Source: Myxococcales bacterium
Lineage (GTDB): Bacteria; Myxococcota_A; UBA9042
Length of the DNA stretch: 64,000 nt
Reading direction: 5' to 3'
Assembly (NCBI GenBank): GCA_023954815.1
Contig: JAGSHB010000003.1
Coordinates: 8,998 to 72,997 of the forward strand
The notes beneath the pieces were generated by a model. That model saw nothing but the letters and a program-made list of their open reading frames with translations. It did no database searches and was not told the origin of the DNA. This document shows, one piece after another, positions 1 to 25,333 of this stretch. The translations under genes and the position numbers were made by a program. Every line of letters begins with the position of its first letter. The first letter of the stretch is position 1.

Positions 1-1193
1 TCCGGGACCGCGATGTCGTCTGTCACCTCGCTCATCTTGCGGGGCGGCTCCATCAGGTGCGCCTTGAGGATGTCGAACGTGCTCTTTTCTTGGCCGAAGA
101 CCTGCTGACCCGTGAGCATGCGGAAAGCGAGCGCGCCCACGGCATAGATGTCGGACCGGCCGTCGATGTCACCTGCCCGAATCTGCTCTGGGCTCATGTA
201 GAAGGGCGTACCAAAGATGTCCTTCTGGGAGTGGATTGTGTACGGGTCGTCGACGTCCTCCACCTTGGCGAGGCCGAAATCGAGGATCTTCACAAAATCC
301 GGATGCGGACCGTCGGCCTGCAGCATGATGTTCTCAGGCTTCAGGTCTCGGTGAACGATGCCTGCGGAGTGCGCTTCCGATAGGGAGTCGCACATCTGTA
401 GCAAGATCGCGGTGGTCCGACGCGGCGGCATGGGCCCTTCGCGGACAAGCGCCTCGTCGAGGGCCTCGCCTTGGAGCAGCTCCATGACGAGGTAAAACAC
501 CTCACCCCAACGGCCAAAATCGTAGACCATCACCGTGTGCTGGCTCGATAGGCGGCTGATCGCGCGGGCCTCTCTAGTAAATCGGCTGACGAGCTGCTTT
601 TTCGAGATGAGATTTTCGTGCAGCAGCTTGATCGCCATCTCTTTGCGGAGATGGATCTGCTCAACACGGTAGACCGCACCCATGCCGCCCCGGCCCACCA
701 GCGACTTCACTAAGTAACGGTCGTCGATGAGCTTGCCGATGTAGGCGCTGCGCTCGGTGCCGTCAGGTTCGCCCGTGTCCTCAACTGATGACACGCGGGT
801 CTCTGCGTTATGGTCCACGTCCCCTTTCGGCGCTTCCCCGGGCACCATCTTGTGACGATCGGTGCTGCGACCTGGATTCGGCGCGGCATCGGGCAGAGAA
901 GCCAGATCGGGGGCGGCTGGACCTTCCGGGCGCTCCGGCGGCGCATCGATGGAGTACATCAGCGTATTGTCACGCTTTCGCGGCTTTTCTGCCGCTTTCT
1001 CAGCAGTGTTCTGTTCGTTTGCGCTCGCGCTAGGGGCTGCGTGCGCACCCGACTTCGGTTTCTTTCCGGCCGGCAGCGGCGGCGGCTTGGGCGCCTTCGC
1101 ACCATGGCGCCCACCGCCCAAAGGCGTCCCGTCAGCAGGGCAGAACTGCTTGTCGTCAGGGTACTCAGTGCTGCATTTGGGACAGACCTTCAT
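1..1193 (-). CDS. Serine/threonine protein kinase with an N-terminal zinc-ribbon; C-terminal part runs off the window edge (partial)
   Basis: Manual translation of the minus strand; this ORF is absent from the supplied track because it has no in-window stop. Start MKVCPKCSTEYPDDKQFCPADG (ATG complement at 1191-1193). Kinase motifs GRGGMGAVY, AIK, HRDLKPENI, DFGLAK, GTPFYMSPE. Confidence 0.8.
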   Translation of the reverse strand, partial: MKVCPKCSTEYPDDKQFCPADGTPLGGGRHGAKAPKPPPLPAGKKPKSGAHAAPSASANEQNTAEKAAEKPRKRDNTLMYSIDAPPERPEGPAAPDLASLPDAAPNPGRSTDRHKMVPGEAPKGDVDHNAETRVSSVEDTGEPDGTERSAYIGKLIDDRYLVKSLVGRGGMGAVYRVEQIHLRKEMAIKLLHENLISKKQLVSRFTREARAISRLSSQHTVMVYDFGRWGEVFYLVMELLQGEALDEALVREGPMPPRRTTAILLQMCDSLSEAHSAGIVHRDLKPENIMLQADGPHPDFVKILDFGLAKVEDVDDPYTIHSQKDIFGTPFYMSPEQIRAGDIDGRSDIYAVGALAFRMLTGQQVFGQEKSTFDILKAHLMEPPRKMSEVTDDIAVP

Positions 1194-1251
1194 CTAGTTC
1201 GGTGTCTCAAGGCGTGGGTGAATGACATGGGCAAATGATGCAGACGAGTGG

Positions 1252-2871
1252 CTAGGGGCGGAAGGGGGTGGGCAGGACGCCCGGTTTCTTGCGCCAGACG
1301 GGCGTGTAGTAGCGACCGGGCGGGAGTGCAAGTGCCTGACGCGCGGCGCCGTCGTGGCTGGCGATCCACAGGCGTGCGCCTCGGCCGTCTTCGTTGGAGA
1401 CGTAGACGACGCGGCGACCACAGCTGGCCCATGAAGGCTCTAGTGAACGCTTGCCGCGGCCCGGCGTGAGTCGCTGCATTTGTTTGGCCATGTCGACGGT
1501 CAAAATGTCCACGGCGCTGCCACGCAGACCAGAATAGACGATCTTATTGTCGGCGCCCCAGTCCGGTCCGGTGTTGTAGGGACCCGCGAAGGTCATCCGC
1601 TGCACATTCGAGCCGTCGGCGTTCATCGTATAGATCTGCGGCCGACCTGTGCGATTGCTGACGAAGGCGAGACGCGTGCCGTCGGGGGACCAGGAGGGAT
1701 CCAGATCGTCGGACTCGTGATTGGTCAGGTTGCGAATCGGCTTGCCGTTGGCTCCGAGCAGCCACAAGTCGGCCTGATCGCCATCATTGATCGTCGCCAC
1801 GACCTGACCGTAGCGGTTCATGGCCGCTGTTCTAAACTGCAGGTTTGCGCCGGTCGCCCAAGGCTTTGCTGGCGCGCCGGGCATTTTGCCGGTGACTTTG
1901 GCCGCACGTTTGCCTTTCTTTGCACGACGTCTCTTCAGGCCGCGCCGCCGCTTCTTCCGCCGCTTCTTCCGGCGCGTCTTTGGCTGTTTGGCTCCCAGAA
2001 TCACCGGCGTGGTGCCGTTGGGTGAGGCCGCCCAAGCGCGTTGGGTCGATGGGCCGTCGAGTCGAAAGAGGGAGGGCAAGTCTGGCGCAAAACTCACGAA
2101 GTTCACGCCGAGATCGAGCGTCGGGCGGGGGAGCATGTGAATGCCTTTGCTACCGACGATGATGCGCGCGTTGTAGCCGTCCGCGTCCGCCATCCAAATG
2201 CAGCGGTGGCAGCCTGGTCCGGGGCTGCTGTAAAAGAGCTGATCGTCAAAGCTGCCTTCGACACCGGTCATCGCGCCGAAAATGGCGTTCGCCGCGCGGT
2301 GTGCGAGACGGCGGATGCTCTTGGCTGGCCCACGCTGCATCGCCCGACGACCGAGCGCCAGACGTTTGCCGGTGCGCACATTGATGACACCGACATGCAA
2401 TTCGACTTGGCCTTTCTGGCCCCGCGCTTTTCGGGCCCAACTCGCGACGGCATAGACGACATTGGCTTTGCGAGCTGCGGCCAAGTTGACCTCAAAGGCA
2501 GGAAGGTTGTAGCGCTTGATCGCGCCAACGGTGCCTTTTTTCAGCTCCAAAGCGCGCACCACGCCACTGAGGCGCATGTCATTGTGCAGCACGGACTGCA
2601 CCTCGTTGCACCAAGCCTTGTAGGGGCCGCAGGCGGTCGGCAGCACGAGCACACCGTCCATCGGGCGCTGCGTGGCCTCGACGATGACGTAGAGTCCCTC
2701 GTCATCTGCAGCGGGCTCAGCAGCGCTCCCCGGCTTGCCAGCATCCGGTTTAACGGCAGCTGGGCGCGGGACCTGTGCGAATGCTAGGGCCGTACAACTC
2801 AACATCCAGGCAGCGACCCACAGCCGCAACGCGCCGGGCGTGGGACGGAAGGGATGACGGGATTTGGGCAT
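1252..2871 (-). CDS. tolB: TolB homolog: TolB N-terminal domain plus PD40/WD40-like beta-propeller, with a ~30-aa polybasic insertion
   Basis: Signal peptide MPKSRH...CTALAFA. TolB N-domain motif RRLAHRAANAIFGAMTGVEGSFDDQLFY...ADADGYN. PD40 repeats (DPSWSPDGTRLAFVS, QIYTMNADGSN). RBS GGAG 7 nt upstream of the ATG at 2869-2871. Confidence 0.7.
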   Translation of the reverse strand: MPKSRHPFRPTPGALRLWVAAWMLSCTALAFAQVPRPAAVKPDAGKPGSAAEPAADDEGLYVIVEATQRPMDGVLVLPTACGPYKAWCNEVQSVLHNDMRLSGVVRALELKKGTVGAIKRYNLPAFEVNLAAARKANVVYAVASWARKARGQKGQVELHVGVINVRTGKRLALGRRAMQRGPAKSIRRLAHRAANAIFGAMTGVEGSFDDQLFYSSPGPGCHRCIWMADADGYNARIIVGSKGIHMLPRPTLDLGVNFVSFAPDLPSLFRLDGPSTQRAWAASPNGTTPVILGAKQPKTRRKKRRKKRRRGLKRRRAKKGKRAAKVTGKMPGAPAKPWATGANLQFRTAAMNRYGQVVATINDGDQADLWLLGANGKPIRNLTNHESDDLDPSWSPDGTRLAFVSNRTGRPQIYTMNADGSNVQRMTFAGPYNTGPDWGADNKIVYSGLRGSAVDILTVDMAKQMQRLTPGRGKRSLEPSWASCGRRVVYVSNEDGRGARLWIASHDGAARQALALPPGRYYTPVWRKKPGVLPTPFRP

Positions 2872-2967
2872 TTTCGATCTCCAGAGCGAACACGAACCAT
2901 CGCCCGTGTCGCGCACCCGGTCAATGTGGCAGCGCAGATGGCTGAGATGATGGGCGGGCTGTTTGAG

Positions 2968-4287
2968 CTATTGCGCGGTCAGCGTCAACTGTGGATTGTC
3001 GCGCAAGTCAGAAATCCAGGGGGTGACGACGGCCACATCTTCGGCGTGCACGTAGGTGCGCTCCATGAACGTCGTGTCTTCGTAGCGTGCGAAGAGTTTG
3101 GTCGCCTCGCCGAGCGGTCTGAAGCGTGGCTGGCCGATGCGGGGCTGAATTCGCACGAAGATCTGGCGCTCTGGATCGGCCTTGCCACGGTATTTCGACA
3201 CCGCGCTTTTGCTCGTCACATGCACATAATCGAGGCCCGCGTCGTCGAGCCTCGCCTCGAGCTCAGTCAGATCATCCCAGCGCTCATGCCACCCACGCTC
3301 CGCCACGCAACTGAGGGGGCGGCCCTGCAAAATACCGCGGGCCCACCGCGATCGCGCCGCGCCTTTTTGCAGCTGTCTGAACACTGCGGGGTCGTCAAAC
3401 TCAAGGAAATCGCCGGGACTGGGCGGCACCGTAAAGTCCGGCGTCTGCTCGTAGAACCGCTTAAGCATCTGGTCGAAGCATTCAACTTTATAGTGAAAGT
3501 AGACCATCAAGAACATGTGGTATCGCGACAGCAGAAAGTCATCGAACGTGTAGAGCGCGCTGTCTTCGAGGGCCAGGTAAACGCGGCCGTTATCCGCCTC
3601 GTAGTAGGTCAGGTGACCGATGAGCCAGTCGTGATCGAATTTTCCGTAGGACACGCCGCTGAAGTAGCTATCCCGCAGGAGATAGTCCATCCGGTCGACA
3701 TCGAGTTCACTGGAGCAAATGGCGCTCAGCACACCCCTCAGATTGCGCCCACTGACCGCGAAGGCGTCGTCCGCGTCTGTGATGCCAGAGTAGAGCAGGG
3801 CTGCGATGTGATGCGGCGCGATGCCCATGGGGCCAAAGGCCTGCTCCACTACAGGCGTGAGTTCGGAGTCCATGAGCAGCTTGAAGGTGTAGTGCTCATG
3901 GCGGGCTTGCTTGGTCGAGTCAGCGGCGTCCATGTGGGGGATCGCCAGGGCCGCGATCGTCGGAAAGAGCGCTTCCGAGGTGTGCGATAGCGGGGCGTGA
4001 CCGGTGTCGTGACAGAGCGCAGCGAGGCGCAGGGTCTGGCGAAGACGGGCCCTGTCGTCGGCGCCGAACCACGTCGCGTCACGAAAGACCGCGTCGAAGG
4101 CCTGGCCTGCCAAGTGCATGACGCCGATAGAGTGCAGAAAGCGGGTGTGGACGGCGCCCGGGAAGACCATGTCGGCGAAACCGAGCTGCTTGATCCGTCT
4201 TAGACGTCGAAAAAATGGGCTCTCGATAATCGCTTGTTCGCCATCACTGACGCTGATGTTGCCGTGGATGGGGTCGCGGATCTCCAT
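2968..4287 (-). CDS. HD-domain phosphohydrolase, dGTPase/SAMHD1-like dNTP triphosphohydrolase family
   Basis: Internal start MEIRDPIHGNI..., then SPFFRRLRRIKQLG, HTRFLHSIGV and LAALCHDTGHAPLSHTSE (HD motif). The upstream 120 codons of the ORF look non-coding. Confidence 0.7.
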   Translation of the reverse strand: MEIRDPIHGNISVSDGEQAIIESPFFRRLRRIKQLGFADMVFPGAVHTRFLHSIGVMHLAGQAFDAVFRDATWFGADDRARLRQTLRLAALCHDTGHAPLSHTSEALFPTIAALAIPHMDAADSTKQARHEHYTFKLLMDSELTPVVEQAFGPMGIAPHHIAALLYSGITDADDAFAVSGRNLRGVLSAICSSELDVDRMDYLLRDSYFSGVSYGKFDHDWLIGHLTYYEADNGRVYLALEDSALYTFDDFLLSRYHMFLMVYFHYKVECFDQMLKRFYEQTPDFTVPPSPGDFLEFDDPAVFRQLQKGAARSRWARGILQGRPLSCVAERGWHERWDDLTELEARLDDAGLDYVHVTSKSAVSKYRGKADPERQIFVRIQPRIGQPRFRPLGEATKLFARYEDTTFMERTYVHAEDVAVVTPWISDLRDNPQLTLTAQ

Positions 4288-4375
4288 GGGTGTGCTCCTG
4301 GCGGCCGATGCGCGCCTCGCTGGCGTGTACCACATGGGGCCGTTGGGTACCGAATCGCGGCGGTTTTGCCGGGGG

Positions 4376-6280
4376 CTATTGCAGCGGCGTGCCCGGCCAA
4401 CGCTTGCAGGCGATCTGCAGCTTTGAGCCCGGTTTTGCGCGCTGGCACATGCGCAATGCGCCTTCGATTGGCGCCCGCATGGTCGGCCGCGCTTCCGATA
4501 GCACGCGCAGACGACGCAGCGCGCCAGCCGGTCTCCGTGCCTGTTGCTCGGCGAACACTGCGGCGGCCACCCACGATGGGTTCGTGTCCGGAGATTTGGT
4601 GAACCGCGCGGCCCAAGACTTCGCCGCGGGATCTGCCGCCGCCACACCGGCGACGTAGACTTTGCGCCCCCACGTCAAATCAACACGCTTGAGCTGCTGG
4701 CCTGTGACGAAGGCCCGCCCATAACGGCGGCACATTACATCCGCGTCGATCGCAGCCTTGCGGGTCGGGTCGTCTTGGCGGCGCAGGGTGCCCGCCTTTT
4801 GGATCAGGGGATCGAGCACGTCGCAGTGGCCCAGTCGCGTCTCGGCTTGGACGAGCAATGTCCACGGCGCCGGCGCCTGTGGATCGATGGTGTGCGCCGC
4901 AGTGAGATGCGTCGCCGCGCCCTGATTGTCCTTCGCACCAAGTCGCAAGCGGCCGAGGTTGTAGCGCATCCGCAGGTTGTTCGGCCGAACTGCGGCGCCG
5001 TGGGCGAAGAGCTGCGCCTCCGACTGCCAGTGCTCGCCTTCAGCAGCTGATGCACTCGCCCAGGGCACCAGCAATCCGAGCGCTAGGCCCAGCGCCGCAC
5101 GCTGCGCGATACCGCCTGCGCACCAAGCTCGCCCAAGCAGGGCGGCGATCATCCCCACCATCGCGATAGACGGCAGAAAGAGCAGCCGGTCGGCAAAAAC
5201 AACGGTGGATGCGAACAGCAGGTTGGACACGGGGAGCCAAGCGCCACCGAACCAAGCGATGGTGGCCGCTGGTGTGCCCGTACTGTGCGCAGACCGCACC
5301 CGCAGCAAATCGCGTACCGCCAGCGCCACGAGGCTGAGCACAATCACGCCGCCTGTCAGTACGAGCCAACCGGCTGGGTGCAGCACTGGCAGCGAATCAA
5401 AGGTCTCATCCGGTGCGAGATCGTAGGGCCACAGCAGCTTTTTCGCAGCGTAGGCGACGAGCCACAGGGCACCCAGCAGGCGCTCGCCCACGCCGACATG
5501 GGCCAGCGGATTGTCGTGAGCGGCGATGAATGGCGTGCCGAGCCAGGTCGCGCGCCACGCCAGCCACAGCAAGCAAACCACTGCCGTCGCTGCGAGCCAT
5601 GTTGCAGCGGTGCGCCGATCGCCATCCCGTTGGCTCCACAGCCACACCGTCCACGGCGCCAAGACGGTCAACGCGGACTCCTTGCTCCACAGGGCCACGA
5701 GCATCAGCATGAGGGAGGCGGGGCCAGCCCACTTCTGGCCGCGCGCACAGGCGATGAACGCCAGCGTCGCCGCCAGCGCCAGCGCAGCAGCCTGCAACTC
5801 CGGGCGATAGGCCACGCACAGCACCGACGAGGCATGCAGTGGATGAGCGGCGAAAAGCAGGGTCGCCAAAGTCGCGCTCACCCGAATGAGCTGCGGTGGC
5901 TGACCGCGCAGAAGTGAAGCCACCAGGAGCCCAACCAGCCCGCAAATCAAGGCATAAAGCAGCAAATTGACGGCATGCCTACCGGGGCTACCGAGGTCCA
6001 GACCCGCTTCCACCGCATAGCCCAGGGTGACCAGCGGGCGACTGAGACCCTGGGTGGCAAACCCGCGGGCCGGGCCAAACCAGGGCGTGGTGAAGATCTG
6101 AGCGATATTCGGCGGCCAGCGCACATTGGCGTTGTCGATCACGGCCGGATGATCATCGTGCACGTAGCTGGCAGTGAGGGCAGGAGGGCCAAATAGCAGC
6201 CCCGTGAGGACGAGCCCGAGCCCCATGAGCGCCAGGGGCAACTGGCGACCACCACGGGGCGGACCGGCGGTTTGGCTCAT
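4376..6280 (-). CDS. Polytopic membrane protein with C-terminal TPR repeats (TMTC/PMT_2-like, GT39/DUF1736-type putative glycosyltransferase)
   Basis: About 11 predicted TM segments in the N-terminal 400 aa, then a TPR-like region. The start ATG overlaps the rodA stop (ATGA). Confidence 0.6.
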   Translation of the reverse strand: MSQTAGPPRGGRQLPLALMGLGLVLTGLLFGPPALTASYVHDDHPAVIDNANVRWPPNIAQIFTTPWFGPARGFATQGLSRPLVTLGYAVEAGLDLGSPGRHAVNLLLYALICGLVGLLVASLLRGQPPQLIRVSATLATLLFAAHPLHASSVLCVAYRPELQAAALALAATLAFIACARGQKWAGPASLMLMLVALWSKESALTVLAPWTVWLWSQRDGDRRTAATWLAATAVVCLLWLAWRATWLGTPFIAAHDNPLAHVGVGERLLGALWLVAYAAKKLLWPYDLAPDETFDSLPVLHPAGWLVLTGGVIVLSLVALAVRDLLRVRSAHSTGTPAATIAWFGGAWLPVSNLLFASTVVFADRLLFLPSIAMVGMIAALLGRAWCAGGIAQRAALGLALGLLVPWASASAAEGEHWQSEAQLFAHGAAVRPNNLRMRYNLGRLRLGAKDNQGAATHLTAAHTIDPQAPAPWTLLVQAETRLGHCDVLDPLIQKAGTLRRQDDPTRKAAIDADVMCRRYGRAFVTGQQLKRVDLTWGRKVYVAGVAAADPAAKSWAARFTKSPDTNPSWVAAAVFAEQQARRPAGALRRLRVLSEARPTMRAPIEGALRMCQRAKPGSKLQIACKRWPGTPLQ

Positions 6281-7392
6281 GTTCTGGCTCTACGACGCAG
6301 GGCGATGTTGACCAAAAATCCGATGCCGATGAGGACGGTCAGCACACTGGAGCCGCCATAACTCATCAGGGGCAGGGTCATACCGACCACGGGCAGCATG
6401 CCGATGACCATCCCTGCGTTGATGAAGAACTGCCAAAATATGAGGGCCGCCACCCCCACCGCCACAAGGGCATCGTATCGCTCCCTGGCATGGTTCGCTA
6501 AATACAGCGCCCACCATAAAACCCCCATATACAAGCCGAAAAGCGCGACTGTACCCACCAAACCAAAGAGCTCCGCCCACGCCGCCAGGGCAAAATCTGT
6601 GTAGAGAAAGGGCAAATGTCGGAGCACCGACCGCCGCGCGTCATCCGAATCTCGGCCGAGCATGCGCCCAGAGCCAACGGCCCACAGCGCCTGTTCCGAC
6701 TGCGAGGCCCGTGCCGTGCGTCGCTGGGTGACCGCGTTTTCATCCAGGGCCATCCACGCCTGCACGCGGCCTTTTTGGTAGTCGCGCACCGCACCCATTC
6801 GCCAAGCGATTGGCACGCCGATGAGCAGCAGCAGGGCTCCTGCGATCAGCGTCTGTTTGCGCACACCTTCGTACAAAATGATCGAGCCGCCGATCATCGA
6901 TACACACAGCGAGGTACCCAGGTCGGGCTCCAAGTTGATGAGAATCACCGGCGCACCCACCAGCAGCAGGGGCATTACCAAATGGCGCAGTGGCCATTCG
7001 ATGGTCCGTCGTCTGGCGTCAAACCAATCCGCCAGCATCAGCACAACGGCGAGCTTCATGAACTCGGACGGCTGCATATTCATCGGCCCGAGCTCGATCC
7101 AGCGCCGGCTGTGGTTGATCTCGCGACCGAAGATCAGCACGGCGACCAGCAGCACGCAAAGCGCCAGGTAGATGGAAAAGCCCATGCGTCGGATGAAGGC
7201 CATGTCTAGACCAGCCGCGACGCCACCGCCCACCAGGCCGACTACCAGCCAAATGGTCTGGCTGCGGTGGAAGTTGGTGTCGTGCAGCGAGTCGATAAAC
7301 CACAGATTGTAGATGGAGGAGGCGCAGATCAGCATCAGGCATCCGAGGCCGATAATCAGCGATCCTTGTCGCATCCGGGCGGCGAGATTCAT
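6277..7392 (-). CDS. rodA: Rod shape-determining protein RodA (SEDS family peptidoglycan glycosyltransferase)
   Basis: SEDS motifs PSEFMKL, EPDLGT and SYGGSS. Sits directly downstream of PBP2 with a 4-nt overlap. Confidence 0.9.
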   Translation of the reverse strand: MNLAARMRQGSLIIGLGCLMLICASSIYNLWFIDSLHDTNFHRSQTIWLVVGLVGGGVAAGLDMAFIRRMGFSIYLALCVLLVAVLIFGREINHSRRWIELGPMNMQPSEFMKLAVVLMLADWFDARRRTIEWPLRHLVMPLLLVGAPVILINLEPDLGTSLCVSMIGGSIILYEGVRKQTLIAGALLLLIGVPIAWRMGAVRDYQKGRVQAWMALDENAVTQRRTARASQSEQALWAVGSGRMLGRDSDDARRSVLRHLPFLYTDFALAAWAELFGLVGTVALFGLYMGVLWWALYLANHARERYDALVAVGVAALIFWQFFINAGMVIGMLPVVGMTLPLMSYGGSSVLTVLIGIGFLVNIALRRRART

Positions 7393-9629
7393 CGCGTGCC
7401 TCCCACGGGTTCAAAGTCACGTGCGATGTCAGGTCCATAGGGAGCGGGCGGCGGTGCAGCGGGCGTGGGAGCCGGGGCTGAGCCGACGGGGAACTTGCCG
7501 AAGTAGCGGGTCATGATGCGCTTGGCGATGGGGCCGGCGACGTGACCACCGTGACCGCCGTGCTCGACAAAGACCGCAACCACGATGCGCGGACTTTCGA
7601 TGGGCGCGAACCCGACAAACCACGCGTGATCGTCCTTGAGCCAGCGAACCACATCGGGCGGCATACCTGGGCGAGCGCGCTGGGCGGCCTCCGCGGTACC
7701 TGTCTTGCCGGCCATGGTCACATCTTCCAGGCGAACCTTTCGCGCGGTGCCGTTCTTGCCCTCGACCACCCGGCGCAATCCCACGCGAATCGCAGCCAAC
7801 GTCGACGATTTTATCCCCATCTTCCGCGGCTTGCGGCGCGCCATGGGTGGGATGCGCTTGTTCTTGCTCTCGAACGCTTCGACGACGCTGACATTGGGCA
7901 AAGTGCCATTGCGGGCGATACCGGCGTAGACCCGCGCGACCTGCAACGGGGAGGCGGTGGCATCTTTCTGGCCAACGGCCGTCGACAGCGCAAAACCGGG
8001 GTAATAGCGGCCCATGCGCTTGGTGTACCAGGCCTTGGTCGGCACGTGCCCCGTCCGCTCGCGTACCTCCACGCCGGTGGCTTCGCCGAATCCCATCTTG
8101 CGCGCGTATTTGGCCAAACGGTCGATGCCGAGCTGCTCGCCGAGCTTGTAATAATAGACGTCACACGACTGAGCGAGCGCCTTCGACAAGTCGACTTCGC
8201 CGTGACCGCTCTTCTTGTGACAACGAAAACGGCGGCCACCAAACTCGTAATAACCAGGACACCAAAAGGTCGTCTTGGGGGTGATGAGCCCCTCTTCCAG
8301 CCCCGCCGCAGAGGCCACCACTTTGTAGGTAGACGCCGGCGGGAAGGGGTGCACCGCCTTGTTCATCAGGGGGGCGTACGGAGAGGCGTCGGTTCGCGCC
8401 TTGATCTCCGCCGTCAGCCGACCGGACCACGCGTTGGGGTCAAAACTCGGCTTGGAGTACATCGCCAGCACCTTACCGGTACGCACATCCAGCGCCACAG
8501 CTGCGCCAGAGTGCACGTGAGCCATGGCGACCTTGGCCGTGCGCTGCAAGTCGAGATCGAGCGTCAATCGCACGTTGAGCCCAGGAACTGTGGGTTTTGG
8601 CTGCATGGCCGCCAGCAGTTCGTCGAGCCCCTTGGCACGCTCGTCCCGGCCCCGTCTGCGCACCAGCACCTGCTCGCCATCCACCCCGCGGAGCAGCGCG
8701 TCAATGCCCCGCTCGAGCCCAACACGACCGACCGTATCGTTCAGTGAATAGCGCGATGGGCCACCCTCGTCGAAGGGCCGCATATCCCGCCGATTGACCC
8801 GGCTCACGTACCCCAGCAGGTGACTGGCCAGATAGCGGTAGGGATACTCTCGTTGGATCGCCGTTCGGATGCGCGTCTCGGGCAAGTCGTGGAGATGGCT
8901 GCGCAAGATCGCCACCTCATCGTTGTACGTCCGGCCGCACATCGCACACCGGAGCGCATGATGACCCTTGTGCACCGGCGTATCGTCATAGGGGCAGGTG
9001 TCCCGGTTGAGGAACTCCCGCGCACAGACGGGGCAGTGCAGGCCGTCGCCGTTGCCGCTCGCGACCAATTTTCGGCGATGAACGGGGCAGGTATGACGCC
9101 GCGGCACCCGCTCGTAGGTCCGGCCACAGGTCGTGCAAAATGCGTAGGGTTGATCGCCCACCAAATCGAGGCGATGGGAGTCGTAGGGGCAGTGAGACGA
9201 GACCAAACCGCGCCGCACAACCACCGGCTTTCGTCGTCTCGGGTCGGTCGGTTTGGACAGCTCGGCGACGAGCCCTTTGACCTCAGAGTCGGTTAGATCG
9301 AGCAAGTGACGCAGGGTTTGTGCGATCGGCGTGACCCGCTTGGCCTTGACCCGATGGCGCAGCACCTCCAGTCGATGGCTTTCGATATTGCGGGCCATGA
9401 CGTCGCCCTTTGAGCCGATAATCAGGCCGCGCGGCGCCGTCGACCGAACCTTGGACACCCGCTCGATGGTAGCGAACTTCTCGTAGCGCTCGCCGCGCAC
9501 CGCCTGCACCAGCAGCAGCCGTGCACTCAGCAGCATCATCCCAGCGGCGACCACCGCGAACGCCACGCTATTGCGGGCTTCGAAGCTGCGTGCGTCGTGG
9601 GACGGACCGAGTTGAAAGCGGGAGTTCAT
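7389..9629 (-). CDS. mrdA: Penicillin-binding protein 2 (MrdA) transpeptidase with a Cys-rich zinc-ribbon-like insertion
   Basis: N-terminal TM segment. Transpeptidase motifs (STYK-like ASTYKVV, SCD, KTGTA). Lies next to mreD and rodA. Insertion at aa 147-231 carries 4 CxxC-type pairs. Confidence 0.9.
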   Translation of the reverse strand: MNSRFQLGPSHDARSFEARNSVAFAVVAAGMMLLSARLLLVQAVRGERYEKFATIERVSKVRSTAPRGLIIGSKGDVMARNIESHRLEVLRHRVKAKRVTPIAQTLRHLLDLTDSEVKGLVAELSKPTDPRRRKPVVVRRGLVSSHCPYDSHRLDLVGDQPYAFCTTCGRTYERVPRRHTCPVHRRKLVASGNGDGLHCPVCAREFLNRDTCPYDDTPVHKGHHALRCAMCGRTYNDEVAILRSHLHDLPETRIRTAIQREYPYRYLASHLLGYVSRVNRRDMRPFDEGGPSRYSLNDTVGRVGLERGIDALLRGVDGEQVLVRRRGRDERAKGLDELLAAMQPKPTVPGLNVRLTLDLDLQRTAKVAMAHVHSGAAVALDVRTGKVLAMYSKPSFDPNAWSGRLTAEIKARTDASPYAPLMNKAVHPFPPASTYKVVASAAGLEEGLITPKTTFWCPGYYEFGGRRFRCHKKSGHGEVDLSKALAQSCDVYYYKLGEQLGIDRLAKYARKMGFGEATGVEVRERTGHVPTKAWYTKRMGRYYPGFALSTAVGQKDATASPLQVARVYAGIARNGTLPNVSVVEAFESKNKRIPPMARRKPRKMGIKSSTLAAIRVGLRRVVEGKNGTARKVRLEDVTMAGKTGTAEAAQRARPGMPPDVVRWLKDDHAWFVGFAPIESPRIVVAVFVEHGGHGGHVAGPIAKRIMTRYFGKFPVGSAPAPTPAAPPPAPYGPDIARDFEPVGGTR

Positions 9630-9734
9630 CTGAGGGACCGGAGTAGGGGGAAGATACTGGCTACCAGGGCGATCGCAGCCCCGATGGTGAGAAATACGAC
9701 CAGCGTGTCGCGATCGTACTGAAACGACACGCTG

Positions 9735-10250
9735 CTAACGGAACATCGAGCCGGCGGAGCTGCGACGTTCGAAGAGTCTGCCCGCTCTGTCGAGCAGGGC
9801 AAATTGCAGCGGCGCGGCGAGCATGGTGATGAGCGACAGGGGCAGCGCCATCCGCAAGGCTTGGGCATGGCTGCCGAATTCGCGGTGGAAAATCGTCTCG
9901 AACATCATGAACAGCCCAGTCGCAACGAGCGTCGCAATCGCTGCGGTCGCCATGAGGCTCACCGGCGAACGCAAATCGGTGTGTCGTGACGCCAACCGCA
10001 TGCCCAGAAAGACCAGTACGCCCACCTCAGCAAACACCCCGACCGGGGCCGCCAAACAGAAGCCGTCTTTCAGCAAACCGATGATAAATACGGTCAGAAT
10101 GCCGGGAAGTAGCCCACCGCGATGCGCTGCGAACATCGCCGTGATCACCAGTACGTCGGGCGCGAAGAGTTGGCTACTGAACGAACCCAGCAGCGGCGAT
10201 TCAAGGCCCAAGAGCAGCCAGGTGACGAGCAGCCATGCGACGTAATTCAT
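9735..10250 (-). CDS. mreD: Rod shape-determining protein MreD
   Basis: About 170-aa polytopic membrane protein sitting between mreC and mrdA. Confidence 0.75.
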   Translation of the reverse strand: MNYVAWLLVTWLLLGLESPLLGSFSSQLFAPDVLVITAMFAAHRGGLLPGILTVFIIGLLKDGFCLAAPVGVFAEVGVLVFLGMRLASRHTDLRSPVSLMATAAIATLVATGLFMMFETIFHREFGSHAQALRMALPLSLITMLAAPLQFALLDRAGRLFERRSSAGSMFR

Positions 10251-10334
10251 GTGCGTTCCTGGTTCCTGCGCGGGCAGGTGCTGTGGAGCCCCGTGTGAGA
10301 GGCGGTCACAGCGGGCTCAAGTGAGTCATGGGGG

Positions 10335-11195
10335 CTATAACGCCACACCGATCCCGAAGTTAATATTGAACTGATCAAGGGCCATATTCGACACATTTTC
10401 CGGCCTTTCAGTCTCCGTGAAGCCGTCGCTGGTGGTCAGTGAATTCCACGTGGTCTGCAGGTATTTCACCTCGACATGGAGCCACCACGCCCGCCCAACT
10501 CGAGAGGGAAAGAGCCGCACCCCGGCCACGTAGCCGAAGGCCCATCCACCGTAGTTGACGTGGGGTAGGTCGACCGTCTCCTCGAAGCAGTCGCCAAACT
10601 CGTCGCACACGTCCTGGGACTCCGACTCCGACGTTCCCATGGACACCAGCAGCCAATCGATGCCGACGTAAGGATCGAAGCGAGCGCCAGGCCGCGGATG
10701 CCAGAGCAGGCTTGGGCCGATGGTGAGCAGGGTGCTGACGTCGAGACCCTGACCGAGTTCATTTTCCCAGGCGCGCGTGTTGAGTGGCCCGAAACCAAAC
10801 GATAGACGCAGGCCGATGTCGAACATGCCGCCGGGGGTATGACCGCCCAAGAAGAAGTCGAGTCCGGTGCTGTCTTCAAATTCGAGCTCGTTGGCGAGCT
10901 GGGCGTTCAATCCGAATGAGCGGTCACCAAAAGCAGTGTAGTGGGCCAGCGCCATCGAAAATGACCCGCCCCAACGCTGGGGAATGCGAGCTCCGCTACG
11001 ACGGCGAGGCGGTTGACTACGGGGGCCACGCTGCTGCATGGCCGGTGGCGTCATTGGCTGGGCAGGCTGTGCCTGGGGCGCCGGTTGTCGCCGGGCCGGC
11101 GGTGCGCCAGCAGCCGGCGGGTGGGCGCTAGCGGCGCTCGACCACAACAGCCCAATCACGGCAATGAGGCAGATCCAATGGCGGTGCGTGTTCAT
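10335..11195 (-). CDS. Secreted beta-rich protein, putative outer-membrane beta-barrel, inserted between mreC and mreD
   Basis: Signal peptide MNTHRHWICLIAVIGLLWSSAASA. Pro/Gln-rich linker, then alternating-hydrophobic beta strands. RBS AAAGGAG 7 nt before the ATG at 11193-11195. The ORF track's longer N-terminus is likely non-coding. Confidence 0.6.
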   Translation of the reverse strand: MNTHRHWICLIAVIGLLWSSAASAHPPAAGAPPARRQPAPQAQPAQPMTPPAMQQRGPRSQPPRRRSGARIPQRWGGSFSMALAHYTAFGDRSFGLNAQLANELEFEDSTGLDFFLGGHTPGGMFDIGLRLSFGFGPLNTRAWENELGQGLDVSTLLTIGPSLLWHPRPGARFDPYVGIDWLLVSMGTSESESQDVCDEFGDCFEETVDLPHVNYGGWAFGYVAGVRLFPSRVGRAWWLHVEVKYLQTTWNSLTTSDGFTETERPENVSNMALDQFNINFGIGVAL

Positions 11196-11226
11196 CCACA
11201 GACTCCTTTGACCGGACATCACGACC

Positions 11227-12165
11227 CTACCCATCCGGCGTATTGGCTGGGTCCACACGCACACGTTTGCGGCGCGCGGCTTCGGGGGCCGGCAGGCTGT
11301 CGCTGTCTTTCACCACAGCCCGATAGCCCGTGACGATCAGCACCTCTTCCAAGGTGGCGAACGCGACCGCAGGCGTCAGCGTATATTCGTGGTACGGGCC
11401 GCGCTGGGTCGATTTTCCCGACGCGACATGGCCGATCTCCAACCCCGGCGGAAACACCCGATCGTGACCGGTTGTGACCACGGCGTCCCCGGGGGCGATG
11501 GGCGTCCGCCTGACCGCGCGGTCGAGGTGAACAAATTCCACGCCGAACTGTTTGCGCCTGCCCTTGCCCTTGACCGTACCGACCACACCCTTGCCGCTGA
11601 TCGACGCGTGGGCCTGACTCCGACTATCGGTCACCAGCATCACATCAGCCCAATCACCAGAGACCTTCTCGATACGCCCCACAACCCCGCCGTGGGTGAT
11701 GACCGCCAGCCCTGGCCGCAAATTCTCGATGCCATCCACGTCGATGCGAACCCGCAACACCCGGAAAAACTGGCTCACCTCTCGGCCGATGACCTTGGCC
11801 GGCACCGTGTCGAGCTCCTTGCGACCCTGTTTGAAATCACACAGCTTTTTCAGGCGCCGCAGCTCTTCCTGCAAGGCCCGACTCTTAAGCGCTTCGCCCA
11901 AAAGTAGCCGATTGTCTCGCTTGAGCTCCTCGTTATTGCGCTTGGTTTTTGTGAGCAGCACGTAGTCGTCGACCACGCCGCCCACCGAGCCGAGACTCGC
12001 ACGTGTGACCGCCTGCATCGGCGCGGTCAGGGCCATGAGCACCTTTTCGATGGGGCTGGTGTTGCGGTTGGGCTTGCCGTGCCAATACATCAGCGCCAGC
12101 GGCAAGATCAGCACGAGGCCGAGCAGGAGCGTGCCCTGATACCGTTGCAGCAGATCGCGAAACAT
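11227..12165 (-). CDS. mreC: Rod shape-determining protein MreC
   Basis: N-terminal TM segment, coiled-coil region and beta-rich C-domain typical of MreC. Upstream of mreD. Confidence 0.85.
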   Translation of the reverse strand: MFRDLLQRYQGTLLLGLVLILPLALMYWHGKPNRNTSPIEKVLMALTAPMQAVTRASLGSVGGVVDDYVLLTKTKRNNEELKRDNRLLLGEALKSRALQEELRRLKKLCDFKQGRKELDTVPAKVIGREVSQFFRVLRVRIDVDGIENLRPGLAVITHGGVVGRIEKVSGDWADVMLVTDSRSQAHASISGKGVVGTVKGKGRRKQFGVEFVHLDRAVRRTPIAPGDAVVTTGHDRVFPPGLEIGHVASGKSTQRGPYHEYTLTPAVAFATLEEVLIVTGYRAVVKDSDSLPAPEAARRKRVRVDPANTPDG

Positions 12166-12174
12166 CGCTAGCTC

Positions 12175-12645
12175 CTACAATCCGGCTTCGCGACGCGCGC
12201 GAGGCATGGCGATGAACAAGTGAGTAAACAACAGGGCGACCGTTGCTAGACCAAGGCTGACTGGTAGCCAAAACAGGGGCTGGGCACCCAGGTCGACGGC
12301 CACATCGTCGACCACTGTCCACCCGACTTGGGTCTTTTCAAAGAGCAGCGCTGTCCAAGCCAAGATGACGACTGTGCTGAACAACAGCGAGCTGGTCCGG
12401 CGCACCCAAGTGCGTCTCAGTCCAAGCCTCGCGTAATTGGCGACCACAATGGCGGTACAGAGGTTCATCAAAGCGTAGAGATACCAGTCTTCGAAGCGCA
12501 GTTTCCAGGTGATGACAGTCGTGCAGACGGCGCTTGCGAGATAGAGCCAGACCGCGAAATTGGCCAAAGCCCGCGCCCGTACACGCCAAATTCGGGGCGT
12601 GTCATCGGCGCTCACGGTCGGGGTGGATTCAGCCATCGGTCCCAT
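12175..12645 (-). CDS. Small 4-TM membrane protein of unknown function (start uncertain)
   Basis: Hydrophobic segments in a 185-aa ORF that begins at a TTG; the internal ATGs at 12643-12645 and 12634-12636 are plausible starts. Lies 10 nt upstream of mreC. Confidence 0.45.
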   Translation of the reverse strand: MGPMAESTPTVSADDTPRIWRVRARALANFAVWLYLASAVCTTVITWKLRFEDWYLYALMNLCTAIVVANYARLGLRRTWVRRTSSLLFSTVVILAWTALLFEKTQVGWTVVDDVAVDLGAQPLFWLPVSLGLATVALLFTHLFIAMPRARREAGL

Positions 12646-12737
12646 GGTGCGGGTAGCGCCAAAACGACGCCAGGGGACCAGGCGTTTGGCCGACGTGCGA
12701 CCACCTGATCCCCATGTCGTTGGCGACACCAAGAGCG

Positions 12738-13091
12738 CTAGGGCGCGTAGTCGTATTTCGCGAAGTTGGTCTCGATCTCGTCCTGCGACGGCGAGTGGCC
12801 CTTCGTGACTTCGGCGATTTCGAAGTCGTCCTCAAAATCGACCATCTTGTAGTTGAGGGCGATGTCCTCGTTGAAGACGTCTGGCGTCTCGTCCTCTTCA
12901 AAAACAGCCTTCCAGGGGCACGCGGGCTCGCAGTTGGTGCAGTCGATGCACTCGTCTGGGTTCACGTACAGCTGATCGGGGAAGGTTGCCTTATCGTCGC
13001 CGGTGTACTCGTAGATGCACTCAACGGGGCAGACATCGGCGCACGCGGTGTCCTTACAGTCTACGCAGAGTCGGGTGATGATGTAGGCCAT
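12738..13091 (-). CDS. 7Fe/8Fe-type ferredoxin (2x[4Fe-4S] binding)
   Basis: Motifs CVDCKDTACADVCP and CIDCTNCEPACP. RBS GGGAG 6 nt before the ATG. Confidence 0.9.
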   Translation of the reverse strand: MAYIITRLCVDCKDTACADVCPVECIYEYTGDDKATFPDQLYVNPDECIDCTNCEPACPWKAVFEEDETPDVFNEDIALNYKMVDFEDDFEIAEVTKGHSPSQDEIETNFAKYDYAP

Positions 13092-13140
13092 GGGGCGCTC
13101 CCTTTTTGGGTAAAAACGGTGAATCTGGTTCGGTGGCTGC

Positions 13141-14166
13141 CTAGCTCATTGCGGCGATAATGGCGTCGGCCATCTCTCTTGTCGAGGCTGAGCCGCCATG
13201 CATTGGCACAACCGCTTGACCACGGGCAAGTACTGCGGACACAGCCGTACGGATCGCATCGACTGCGCTGGTCTCACCGAGGTGGGTCAGCAGGTCCACC
13301 GCTGGCATCAGCAGAGCTAGCGGGCTGGCACACAGCTCACCGGCATCATTGGTACTGCCGCCGACGTGTTGCGTCGCTTCGAACACCCGCACGCCCTCAC
13401 CGGTATTGGCGCTGGTGACAATGAGACTGGAGCCCACGAGGCCGGCACCGATGTCGCCGAGGATGTCCCCAAACAGGTTGCCGGCGACCAGCACGTCGAA
13501 CTGCTCTGGCCGGGCGACCATCTGCATGGCGGCGTTGTCGGCGATGATGTCTTTGTGGGTGATCTGCGGGAATTCTGCCGCGATTTCCTTACCGATCTGG
13601 CGGAAAAGCCCATCGCTCATCTTCATGATGTTGGCTTTGTGCACCACCGTGACCTGCTTGCGACCCAAGCGCACGGCTTCCGAAAACGCGAAACGGATCA
13701 CTTGTTCAGCTTTGTGACGGGTCAGCACTTTGATCGTCTCAACCACGCCGGGCACGATGGTGTGTTCGATACCGGCGTAGGTGCCTTCCGTTAGCTCGCG
13801 TACCAAGATGATGTCCACGTCTTCGTAGCGACTCGGCATCCCTGCAAGACTGCGCAGCGATCGCACACCGGCGAAAACCCCGAGCCCTTGGCGCAGGGTC
13901 ACGTTCGGCGAGGTGTACCCTCCACCGACTGGCGTGCGCAGCAGGGGCTTGATGCACAACCCGATGTCCTTGATTCGTTCGATGGTGCTCTGGGGCATCG
14001 GATCGCCGCAGGCATCGACCGAGCGGACGCCGACGGGAAGCGGATGCCAGTCGATGGCCACGCCAGCGGCTTGTACGATGCGCTTCACGGCGTCGCTAAG
14101 CGCGTCGCTTGTGGGGCCGCCCTGAAGCAGGGCAACGGCGGGAACGGCGGAAATGGGCTCGCTCAT
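13141..14166 (-). CDS. Isocitrate/isopropylmalate dehydrogenase family protein; divergent paralog lacking the N-terminal GDGIGPE motif
   Basis: Motifs SPNVTLRQ, ILVRELTEGTYAG, NLFGDILGDIGAGLVG and HKANIMK. RBS AAAGGAG. Confidence 0.75.
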   Translation of the reverse strand: MSEPISAVPAVALLQGGPTSDALSDAVKRIVQAAGVAIDWHPLPVGVRSVDACGDPMPQSTIERIKDIGLCIKPLLRTPVGGGYTSPNVTLRQGLGVFAGVRSLRSLAGMPSRYEDVDIILVRELTEGTYAGIEHTIVPGVVETIKVLTRHKAEQVIRFAFSEAVRLGRKQVTVVHKANIMKMSDGLFRQIGKEIAAEFPQITHKDIIADNAAMQMVARPEQFDVLVAGNLFGDILGDIGAGLVGSSLIVTSANTGEGVRVFEATQHVGGSTNDAGELCASPLALLMPAVDLLTHLGETSAVDAIRTAVSAVLARGQAVVPMHGGSASTREMADAIIAAMS

Positions 14167-23296: not shown

Positions 23297-25333
23297 ATGG
23301 ATAGCTCGTTTTGCCGCCGGAATACTCGCGCGGCCATCGCCATCGCCTGCGCTGTCGCCATGCTGACGGTCGGCTGTGGTCCGAAAGAGACCGAGACCAC
23401 CGGCAAAGGCAAGGCCACCAAGGGCGCCAAGAGCGCGGGGTTGGACCGGGCCCAGCTCGGCGCAGAGAAGCCATCGGTCGATATCATCGCATTTGTTGGT
23501 TTCCAGTGTGCGCACTGCAAAAAGAGCGCGGATGCGCTGTTGCAGCTCGCCACGACCCACTCGAAGGACGTGCGCCTGCGCATCGTGAACCTGCCGCTCG
23601 ACGTGCACGCCGATAGCGTCGCCCTGGCCAAAGGGTTCGTGGCAGCCCGTATGCAGGGTAAGTGGCAGGCGTACTACAAGCACATCTTTAGCCTCCCGAA
23701 GGCCACGGCGGACGACGTCGTGAAATGGGCCGCTGGCGCCGGAATCGATGCAGCGAAGTTCAAGAAGGACTTGGCGAGCAAAGCCGTCGCGGACGAGGTC
23801 GGCGTCGACGCGGGCATCGCTGGTGCGCTGGGTGTCGCTGGCACGCCGAGCTACTTGGTCAACGGTGCACTGCTGCAGGGGGCACGCGCCGCCGAAGAGT
23901 GGAAGAGCATCATCGACGGTCAGAAGGCGCTCGCCGCCAAGAAGACCAAGGATGGCGTCAAAGCGGCTGACCTCATGCGGACGCTCGCCAAGGCCAACAG
24001 CCCCAAGCGCGCCCCGCACTACGCGCGCATCGTCCTGAAGGGCGAGCTACCGGCAGCGGCAACGGTTCCGGTGAAGACGAAGAAGCGCAAAAGTGGCGTG
24101 GTTGCGGCTAAATTGCTGCCAGCTGGCGGCAGCGGCGGCGGTACAGTTCAACTCGGCGGAGCTGCCGCGAAGGACACCGGCATCGATCGCAACACCGTAT
24201 GGCGCGTGATCGTTCGCCCGGACGATCCCGTTCGCGGCGCCAAGGATGCCCCCCTGACCGTCGTCGTGTTCAGCGACTACGAGTGCAAGTTCAGCAAGCA
24301 GCTCCAGCCTACGTTGAAGGCCCTTGAGGGCGAGTTTGGTAAGGATTTGCGCATCGTTCACAAGCACAACCCGCTGCCCTTCCATCAGCGCGCCATGGCC
24401 GCGGCTGAAGCGGCAGAGGCTGCTCGCGCACAGGGGCAGTTCTGGAAGATGCACGACGCGCTGTTCGCGGCCGCACCCGCGCTGCAGGACACGGACCTGA
24501 GCAAGCTCGCCGCCGACATCAAGTTGGACAAAGCTGGCTACGACAATGCGATGAGCGCGCACGGCGCCCAGCGTCGAGTTCGGTCTGACGTTGAGCAGGC
24601 CGCTGCCGTTGGTGCGCGGGGTACGCCTAACTTGTTCATCAACGGTATGAAGGTGGTGGGCGCCAAGACCAAGGCTGACTTGATGCCGCTCATGCGGAGC
24701 CAGCTTGCGGCCGCAAAGAAGATGATCGCTGGCGGCACCCCCGCCGCGACGGTCTACGACAAGATCGTGGGGCAGGGCCGCCTACTCAGCAGCCTATCGG
24801 CCAAGGCGGCGACCATCGCGACCCTCGGCGCCGCGACCCGTGGCCCCAAGGGCGCCGCGATTCACATCGTCGCGTTTGAGGATTTTCAGTGCCCCTTCTG
24901 TGCGCGCCTGGATCAGCACATCGCGGCTATGGAGCGCGAGTTTGACGGCCGTGTGAAGGTCACCTGGATGGACTTCCCGCTGAGCAAGATTCATCCGCAA
25001 GCGCAGATGGCGGCTGAGGCCGGCAAAGAGGCCTTGGCCCAGGGCAAGTTCTGGCAGTTCCACGCCGCAGTCATGGCTGATCAGCACGACCTGACGGAGC
25101 CCGGGTTGCTGATTCTCGCGAAGAAGGCCGGTGTCGACACCAAGAAGTTGCGCGCCGCATTGAAGAGCCACAAGTGGGCGGCGGACGTCGCCAAGGAGCG
25201 CGCGGAGGGGCAGAAGCTGGCACTGAAGGGCACGCCAAGCGTGTTCATCAATGGCTACGCGTTCACGCCGCAGCTCGGCTTCTCGGCCAATACGTTCCGT
25301 TCGGCGATTGTGCGCCTGCTCGGTGCGCGCTAG
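23297..25333 (+). CDS. Lipoprotein with three tandem DsbA-like thioredoxin domains
   Basis: Lipobox AIACAVAMLTVGCG. Motifs CAHC, CKFS (degenerate) and CPFC, each followed by a DsbA-like helical insert. Confidence 0.8.
   Translation: MDSSFCRRNTRAAIAIACAVAMLTVGCGPKETETTGKGKATKGAKSAGLDRAQLGAEKPSVDIIAFVGFQCAHCKKSADALLQLATTHSKDVRLRIVNLPLDVHADSVALAKGFVAARMQGKWQAYYKHIFSLPKATADDVVKWAAGAGIDAAKFKKDLASKAVADEVGVDAGIAGALGVAGTPSYLVNGALLQGARAAEEWKSIIDGQKALAAKKTKDGVKAADLMRTLAKANSPKRAPHYARIVLKGELPAAATVPVKTKKRKSGVVAAKLLPAGGSGGGTVQLGGAAAKDTGIDRNTVWRVIVRPDDPVRGAKDAPLTVVVFSDYECKFSKQLQPTLKALEGEFGKDLRIVHKHNPLPFHQRAMAAAEAAEAARAQGQFWKMHDALFAAAPALQDTDLSKLAADIKLDKAGYDNAMSAHGAQRRVRSDVEQAAAVGARGTPNLFINGMKVVGAKTKADLMPLMRSQLAAAKKMIAGGTPAATVYDKIVGQGRLLSSLSAKAATIATLGAATRGPKGAAIHIVAFEDFQCPFCARLDQHIAAMEREFDGRVKVTWMDFPLSKIHPQAQMAAEAGKEALAQGKFWQFHAAVMADQHDLTEPGLLILAKKAGVDTKKLRAALKSHKWAADVAKERAEGQKLALKGTPSVFINGYAFTPQLGFSANTFRSAIVRLLGAR

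Follow-up and report, generated by a model that had tools for sequence, protein, structure and literature searches.

A predicted TMTC-type glycosyltransferase encoded directly behind rodA in uncultured Myxococcota

The GT-C fold class of glycosyltransferases includes PMT, ArnT, and STT3. Animal TMTC enzymes mannosylate cadherins, and TMTC1 to TMTC4 belong to CAZy family GT105. We take the TMTC family as proteins that combine a GT-C membrane domain with tetratricopeptide repeats (TPRs) and contain Pfam PF08409. Uncharacterized full-length prokaryotic homologues have been remarked on, and seven motifs (M1 to M7) have been defined for the TMTCs (Eisenhaber et al., PMC7801869, Table 4). Here, we describe TMTCL, the 634-amino-acid (aa) product of an open reading frame (ORF) that directly follows rodA in a 64,000-nucleotide stretch of DNA from a Myxococcales bacterium (GenBank assembly GCA_023954815.1, contig JAGSHB010000003.1, positions 8,998 to 72,997), which we call the window. 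Its sequence is identical to that of KC502_00920, a protein from a metagenome-assembled genome (MAG) that is annotated at NCBI as 'hypothetical protein [Myxococcales bacterium]'. The order of the genes around it hints at a glycosylation step linked to cell elongation. We put at roughly 0.5 the probability that TMTCL is a periplasmic glycosyltransferase that depends on a polyprenyl-phosphate-sugar, probably acts on proteins, and is co-expressed with the elongasome.

A precedent for this reading is Pmt of Actinobacteria, a bacterial GT-C enzyme of family GT39 that transfers mannose from polyprenyl-phosphate-mannose to secreted or periplasmic proteins. Pmt belongs to another family than TMTCL and has no TPR domain, and to our knowledge, pmt is not encoded in a rodA/pbp operon. 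ArnT is also different, with 13 transmembrane (TM) helices, a non-TPR periplasmic domain, and lipid A as the acceptor, and it was not matched by TMTCL at the phmmer level. In Streptomyces coelicolor, the proteins that Pmt O-mannosylates include penicillin-binding proteins (PBPs), LCP proteins, and an L,D-transpeptidase, and cells without functional pmt become hypersensitive to antibiotics that target the wall (PMC6593405). On the side of the elongation machinery, TMTCL resembles the known RodA-PBP2 partners, such as MreC, MreD, and RodZ, in that its gene lies in the mre/mrd string and is presumably co-expressed with RodA. The known partners include no glycosyltransferase and no protein with a GT-C fold, however, and TMTCL is restricted to a lineage rather than universal. 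In Escherichia coli, the gene after rodA is that of RlpA.

By homology, TMTCL is predicted to be a TMTC-family GT-C glycosyltransferase of the inner membrane. A phmmer search of 5.8 billion sequences returned some 25 close relatives with lengths near 640 aa, followed by bacterial DUF1736/TPR proteins, and it reached vertebrate (fish) TMTC4 at E values of about 1e-15 to 1e-14. The BLASTP alignment of TMTCL (aa 25 to 456) to fish TMTC4 spans 482 aa and shows 26% identity (E = 3e-21). A likeness to eukaryotic TMTC proteins had been proposed in an earlier, sequence-only reading of this DNA, which had staked its case on GT-C similarity; both searches make that similarity clear, and the motifs lie at the same positions. 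An AF2 model built from 22 sequences (pLDDT, 91; pTM, 0.88) has the GT-C membrane fold, with 11 long hydrophobic TM helices between aa 13 and 416 (about 11 had been predicted), and then an all-helical domain from about aa 418. Animal TMTC1 to TMTC4 have the same layout, an 11-TM GT-C domain and then a TPR region, lumenal in their case. The membrane domains are alignable throughout, and the motifs DD, (Y/S)RP, R-x-(D/E), KE, DNP, (F/P)D, and (E/D)R-x-x-(Y/F) coincide in the alignment. We infer from this homology that the active site of TMTCL faces the periplasm. Sequence and profile searches of the PDB with TMTCL gave TPR matches only, with no solved TMTC structure and no GT-C protein found by sequence, and no NCBIfam model matched it.

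The loop that is characteristic of TMTC_DUF1736 lies between TM7 and TM8. The Pfam model of that name scored 20.6 bits on TMTCL (aa 250 to 300; E = 4.5e-4), short of its cut-off of 27 bits, and it matched 11 of 22 subfamily members at an E value of <0.1 (best E value, 3e-5). The loop aligns with the DUF1736 loop of TMTC4, and the two have the invariant DNP, R, and D in common. The architecture had previously been described as GT39/DUF1736-like, and the second half of that description stands. Assignment to PMT/GT39 was rejected, since no PMT, PMT_2, or MIR match was found at an E value of <0.1 in any of the 22 members. Pfam PF13231 is carried only by some distant TMTC-like relatives and not by the TMTCL subfamily.

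The C-terminal domain begins with two or three recognizable TPRs and continues as a helical extension. The C-terminal repeats claimed earlier are therefore present as a TPR-like domain, of which only aa ∼418 to 510 are recognizable as TPR; strong matches to TPR structures came from the family profile over these positions, and the single TMTCL sequence had no Pfam TPR match at an E value of <0.01. The last 130 to 150 residues are specific to the subfamily: among 1.84 billion sequences scanned, only about 26 representatives matched the profile to its end, and the next matches spanned only positions 7 to ∼490. It is this extension that sets the TMTCL subfamily (about 26 clusters at 50% identity) apart. 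Every one of the 18 copies linked to rodA keeps two cysteines of the domain, C486 and C517, as would suit a disulfide in the periplasm; together with the homology, the pair suggests that the C-terminal domain lies on the periplasmic side. Unlike the animal TMTCs, TMTCL is bacterial, is predicted to sit in the inner membrane, and has its gene fixed behind rodA. It also differs from them in having so few recognizable TPRs and a unique extension with a conserved cysteine pair, and in lacking the H-K of M2 and the first P of M6, with the W of M5 replaced by E or Y. The donor, too, would differ and be a bacterial polyprenyl-phosphate-sugar.

Core residues of all seven TMTC motifs were found in TMTCL, with M2 and M6 being partial (Table 1). 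An acidic, putatively catalytic motif in the first periplasmic loop, as expected of a GT-C enzyme, is provided by D42-D43: D42 is present in 18 of 18 distinct rodA-linked copies, of which 17 also have D at position 43, while one has E there. Columns of the motifs and of the DUF1736 loop are invariant in an alignment of the subfamily with fish TMTC4 and other TMTC-like proteins of bacteria. Judging from the 18 copies, D42-D43, R81-P82, R159-x-E161, K200-E201, D256-N257-P258, P290-D291, and D364-R365 are under strong purifying selection. Among the 18 copies, the mean pairwise identity was 0.65 for RodA, 0.40 for the TM domain of TMTCL, and 0.36 for its C-terminal domain. Modeling of TMTCs has assigned catalysis and the binding of metal and polyprenyl-phosphate to the motif residues (PMC7801869). 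It could be argued that TMTCL has no transferase activity and serves the elongasome as a membrane-anchored TPR adaptor, as the TPR-like periplasmic domain is suited to protein-protein contacts and the Pfam DUF1736 score is under the cut-off. The catalytic and ligand-binding motifs are, however, kept in 17 to 18 of 18 copies amid ∼35 to 40% identity. This signature favors a working active site over a purely structural role, and we consider a noncatalytic scaffold very improbable.

Nineteen distinct loci, from MAGs and metagenomes of uncultured Myxococcota, have the gene order mreC-mreD-pbp2-rodA-TMTCL-HD, where HD stands for a gene encoding an HD-domain protein; the full conserved string continues with a TolB-like gene and a kinase gene. 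TMTCL thus lies within the mre/mrd string, on the same strand as rodA, pbp2, mreC, and mreD. All seven close homologues for which contigs were retrieved (29 to 61% identity) have their genes immediately behind rodA and ahead of the HD gene. Subfamily member P0073 likewise adjoins rodA, and adjacency to rodA, to which the sequence-only reading had drawn attention as a point to follow in related genomes, is kept in relatives of TMTCL down to 27 to 30% identity.

We also confirmed that the rodA stop codon and the TMTCL start codon overlap by 4 nucleotides (nt), as ATGA on the minus strand. Such 4-nt overlaps are common in operons, and pbp2 and rodA overlap in the same way (positions 7389 to 7392); the ATGA by itself is therefore unremarkable. 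Its persistence across loci, on the other hand, exceeds chance. At 11 of the 14 distinct loci compared, the junction reads ATGA or GTGA; at the other three, the start codon lies 0 to 3 nt past the stop codon. The overlap holds even where RodA identity has dropped to 55%. One sub-lineage has a gene for a TauE-family permease inserted between pbp2 and rodA (L004, 4109 to 4867; L008, 1566 to 4852), and the L008 insertion also holds genes for a zinc alcohol dehydrogenase (ADH) and a 431-aa protein. These TauE/ADH insertions break the pbp2-rodA overlap and leave rodA-TMTCL-HD intact. The overlap had been taken to imply stoichiometric co-expression with RodA. Coupled translation is supported by these data, and a 1:1 ratio is not implied by an overlap.

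To see how far the link extends, we scanned one genome per species and obtained 50 TMTC-like loci. The subfamily members with upstream sequence have RodA encoded immediately upstream, L019 aside. RodA and PBP2 genes are absent from the 6 kb around each of 36 more distant bacterial TMTC-like loci (from Gemmatimonadota, Acidobacteriota, Elusimicrobiota/Endomicrobia, Planctomycetota, Myxococcus species, and others). The first match outside the subfamily, P0080, is likewise not linked to rodA and follows Sod, Crp, and Dus genes. In a search that started from RodA, four distinct relatives carried TMTCL and two did not, and rodA neighborhoods at 34 to 41% RodA identity held no TMTCL. The rodA link is strongly conserved, specific to the subfamily, and yet dispensable. 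No fusion of RodA and TMTCL was found among the best 150 representatives, and we found no report in the literature of a bacterial TMTC-like gene linked to rodA. A mirror-tree comparison of RodA and TMTCL (pairwise identities, r ∼0.9) was taken to reflect shared phylogeny and set aside as evidence of interaction. Three of the loci, L012, L019, and L024, come from records titled 'uncultured Enterobacteriaceae bacterium' and hold a Myxococcota-type string with proteins that are 59 to 70% identical; the taxonomic labels of these records look wrong.

Several observations weigh against a functional tie between TMTCL and the elongasome, or against parts of the activity proposed above. All genomes in the comparison are MAGs or contigs from metagenomes. 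The linkage occurs in a single uncultured Myxococcota lineage, and shared ancestry therefore explains part of it. Three loci break the link, so that TMTCL is neither present wherever the Rod system is nor lineage-wide. In L065 (693 to 806), a rodA gene whose product is 71% identical lies 63 nt ahead of the HD gene, with neither a TMTC-like gene nor a trace of one between them, and in L064 (RodA, 55% identical), rodA is the last gene of the operon. The most divergent subfamily member, P0076 (L081/L082), has the HD gene downstream and no rodA upstream. L081 and L064 derive from one metagenome and may belong to one organism with a split gene string. The HD gene lies directly 3′ of TMTCL in every TMTCL locus, L081 included, with spacings from a 14-nt overlap to a 94-nt gap, and TMTCL is thus tied to HD at least as faithfully as to rodA. 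It also evolves much faster than its neighbors, at about twice their rate. As for the activity, M2, to which mannose contacts have been assigned, is reduced to S-R-P, and the sugar may for this reason not be mannose. A scan of roughly 30 window ORFs turned up no gene for a polyprenyl-phosphate-sugar synthase, and no candidate acceptor stands out.

Upstream of the detached copy lies 2.1 kb of DNA (L081, 1 to 2168; L082, 1 to 2251) with no called gene and a GC content of 66%. Neither a convincing ORF nor a match in Rfam was found in it, and it resembles neither the window nor the other loci.

Much of this could also be expected if TMTCL were a working GT-C enzyme with a general role in the envelope and no specific relationship to RodA or PBP2, for example, in broad periplasmic protein O-glycosylation or in the modification of pilins, adhesins, or exopolysaccharide. 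Its gene would then have been acquired behind rodA once, by an ancestor, and retained because compact operons break up slowly. The restriction to one lineage, the roughly 2-fold-faster divergence, and the three exceptional loci (in L081, TMTCL goes with HD and not with rodA) are in line with this, as are the inclusion in the string of genes with no obvious wall role (HD phosphohydrolase and kinase) and the thousands of other bacterial TMTC-like proteins in unrelated contexts. It accounts less well for a junction that stays overlapped at 55% RodA identity and outlasts the insertions that separate pbp2 from rodA. The conserved C-terminal domain, moreover, is peculiar to the subfamily and occurs in this gene context only, which suggests a dedicated client. 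We regard such an operon passenger as possible but on the unlikely side. Judging from gene order, TMTCL may be an accessory component of the Rod system, as the sequence-only reading had proposed.

Under the reading that we prefer, of a periplasmic glycosyltransferase co-expressed with the elongasome, ribosomes that end rodA would re-initiate at the overlapping ATG or GTG of TMTCL; at most rodA/TMTCL junctions, no strong Shine-Dalgarno sequence was evident upstream. TMTCL would then be made whenever RodA is, in a ratio that is not fixed. The enzyme would take a sugar from polyprenyl (undecaprenyl) monophosphate-sugar at the periplasmic face of the membrane and pass it on to a hydroxyl group. 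If the TMTC models are a guide, D42/D43 would be catalytic, and K200/E201, D291, and D364/R365 would bind metal and phosphate. The likeliest acceptor would be a Ser or Thr of a periplasmic protein gripped by the TPR-like domain, given this domain and the fact that the nearest sequence relatives glycosylate proteins. Given the gene context, the client would most likely belong to the elongation machinery or work next to it, with PBP2, MreC, the RodA loops, and other wall enzymes as candidates. A stronger version, which we find doubtful, would make TMTCL a dedicated elongasome subunit that docks on RodA-PBP2 via its subfamily-specific periplasmic domain and glycosylates an elongasome protein or nascent glycan/lipid II.

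The acceptor need not be a protein. The sugar might instead be added to lipid II, to the nascent peptidoglycan strand leaving RodA, or to another undecaprenyl-linked intermediate, with the TPR-like domain docking on the elongasome and binding no substrate. ArnT, acting on lipid A, and GT-C enzymes that decorate teichoic acids and arabinan are analogues. The fold of TMTCL is no nearer to protein transferases than to ArnT, AftA/AftB, and ALG enzymes, the putative mannose-binding motif is degenerate, and coupling to a lipid II-using polymerase would place the enzyme at the source of nascent glycan. The sequence homology of TMTCL is, however, specifically to the TMTCs, which are protein O-mannosyltransferases, and TPR domains generally bind proteins or peptides. 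We also know of no GT-C modification of Gram-negative peptidoglycan, and we consider this alternative quite unlikely.

Two features of PBP2 were considered as acceptors for TMTCL and rejected. The Pro/Ala/Thr-rich C-terminal tail of PBP2 is variable and does not correlate with the presence of TMTCL, being short in L003, which has TMTCL. A Cys-rich insertion in PBP2 is also present in L064, which has no adjacent TMTCL. This insertion is unusual for a class B PBP. It comprises ∼95 aa (aa ∼145 to 236; window positions 8922 to 9197, minus strand) with eight cysteines and three CxxC pairs in the pattern HCPYD..FCTTCGR..TCPVH..HCPVCARE..TCPYD..RCAMCGR, and by its sequence, it looks like zinc-ribbon repeats within the periplasmic pedestal domain. 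The PBP2 proteins of relatives gave faint Rad50_zn_hook matches. Elsewhere in the window (23297 to 25333, plus strand), a 678-aa protein with three tandem DsbA/thioredoxin-like domains is followed by a second DsbA-like protein; with the Cys-rich insertion of PBP2 in mind, so much machinery for periplasmic disulfides is notable.

The remaining genes of the string are listed with the features of TMTCL in Table 1. RodA was also identified by NCBIfam, with TIGR02210 matching at an E value of 4.4e-90 and NF037961 passing its cut-off. The slot of the mreD-like gene, between mreC and pbp2, is kept in relatives, and a gene of ∼300 aa between mreC and mreD is present in L001 and L002 and not in L003 and L006. 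Downstream of TMTCL, the start of the HD gene at position 4287 is backed by tblastn alignments that start at residue 1 in all relatives. The TolB-like gene is kept in L001 to L003, L006, and L083, and the position of the kinase gene is likewise occupied in L001, L002, L003, L006, and L083. The Ser/Thr kinase, the product of the last conserved gene of the string, carries an N-terminal zinc-ribbon; it is reminiscent of the kinases that are encoded near rodA/pbpA in Actinobacteria. A promoter and terminator scan of positions 1 to 13200 gave counts no better than chance, and operon boundaries could therefore not be set.

Table 1. Genes of the rodA/TMTCL region and features of TMTCL, in window coordinates
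Feature	Position (nt)	Strand	Length or residues	Details
Ser/Thr protein kinase, N-terminal part	3..1193	minus		Pfam Pkinase 6e-45; gene cut by window edge
Periplasmic TolB-like PD40 beta-propeller gene	1252..2916	minus		TIGR02800 3e-56, under cut-off; Pfam PD40
HD-domain, dGTPase-like gene	2968..4287	minus	~439 aa	Pfam HD, HD_assoc_2
TMTCL	4376..6280	minus	634 aa	Start codon ATG at 6280..6278
TMTCL, C-terminal all-helical domain (predicted periplasmic)	4376..5029	minus	aa 418-634	Includes stop codon
TMTCL, N-terminal membrane domain	5030..6280	minus	aa 1-417	11 TM helices, GT-C fold
TMTCL, DUF1736-type periplasmic loop	5372..5539	minus	aa 248-303	TM7-TM8; D256-N257-P258, R267, P290-D291
TMTCL, M1 (DD)	6152..6157	minus	D42-D43	First periplasmic loop, directly after TM1
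TMTCL, M2 (SHKSYRP)			S80-R81-P82	Reduced
TMTCL, M3 (RxD)			R159-P-E161	
TMTCL, M4 (KE(T/Q)xxT)			K200-E201-S-x-x-T205	
TMTCL, M5 (DW)			D291	Followed by E, Y, or W
TMTCL, M6 (PxxP)			P350	Only this P kept
TMTCL, M7 (ERxxY)			D364-R365-x-x-F368	
ATGA overlap of rodA stop (TGA) and TMTCL start (ATG)	6277..6280	minus	4 nt	Plus strand, tcat
rodA (SEDS peptidoglycan polymerase)	6277..7392	minus	371 aa	Pfam FTSW_RODA_SPOVE (PF01098) 3e-78
pbp2/mrdA	7389..9629	minus	746 aa	TIGR03423 1.4e-163 (passes cut-off); Pfam Transpeptidase, PBP_dimer
mreD-like gene	9735..10250	minus	171 aa	TIGR03426 full-length at 3.8e-4, under cut-off
ORF resembling outer-membrane beta-barrel	10335..11264	minus	309 aa	OMP_b-brl 3.7e-5, sub-threshold; between mreC and mreD
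mreC	11227..12165	minus	312 aa	Pfam MreC 2.3e-29; first recognizable gene of string

Bacterial homologues of TMTC are numerous, with more than 7,000 clusters (50% identity) matching the profile at an E value of ≤1e-30, eukaryotic TMTCs included. The context of TMTCL points to lateral cell-wall synthesis and offers a concrete starting hypothesis for bacterial enzymes of the TMTC type. The practical weight of the finding is limited, as the lineage is uncultured and the link is one of gene order alone. If the proposed role is true, TMTCL would represent a new kind of accessory activity for the SEDS-bPBP machinery, and the support of wall enzymes by GT-C O-glycosylation, as in Actinobacteria, would extend to a Gram-negative lineage. 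Were TMTCL in fact a dedicated elongasome subunit, it would give SEDS-bPBP machines their first accessory factor that is a glycosyltransferase and bacterial TMTC homologues their first assigned function.

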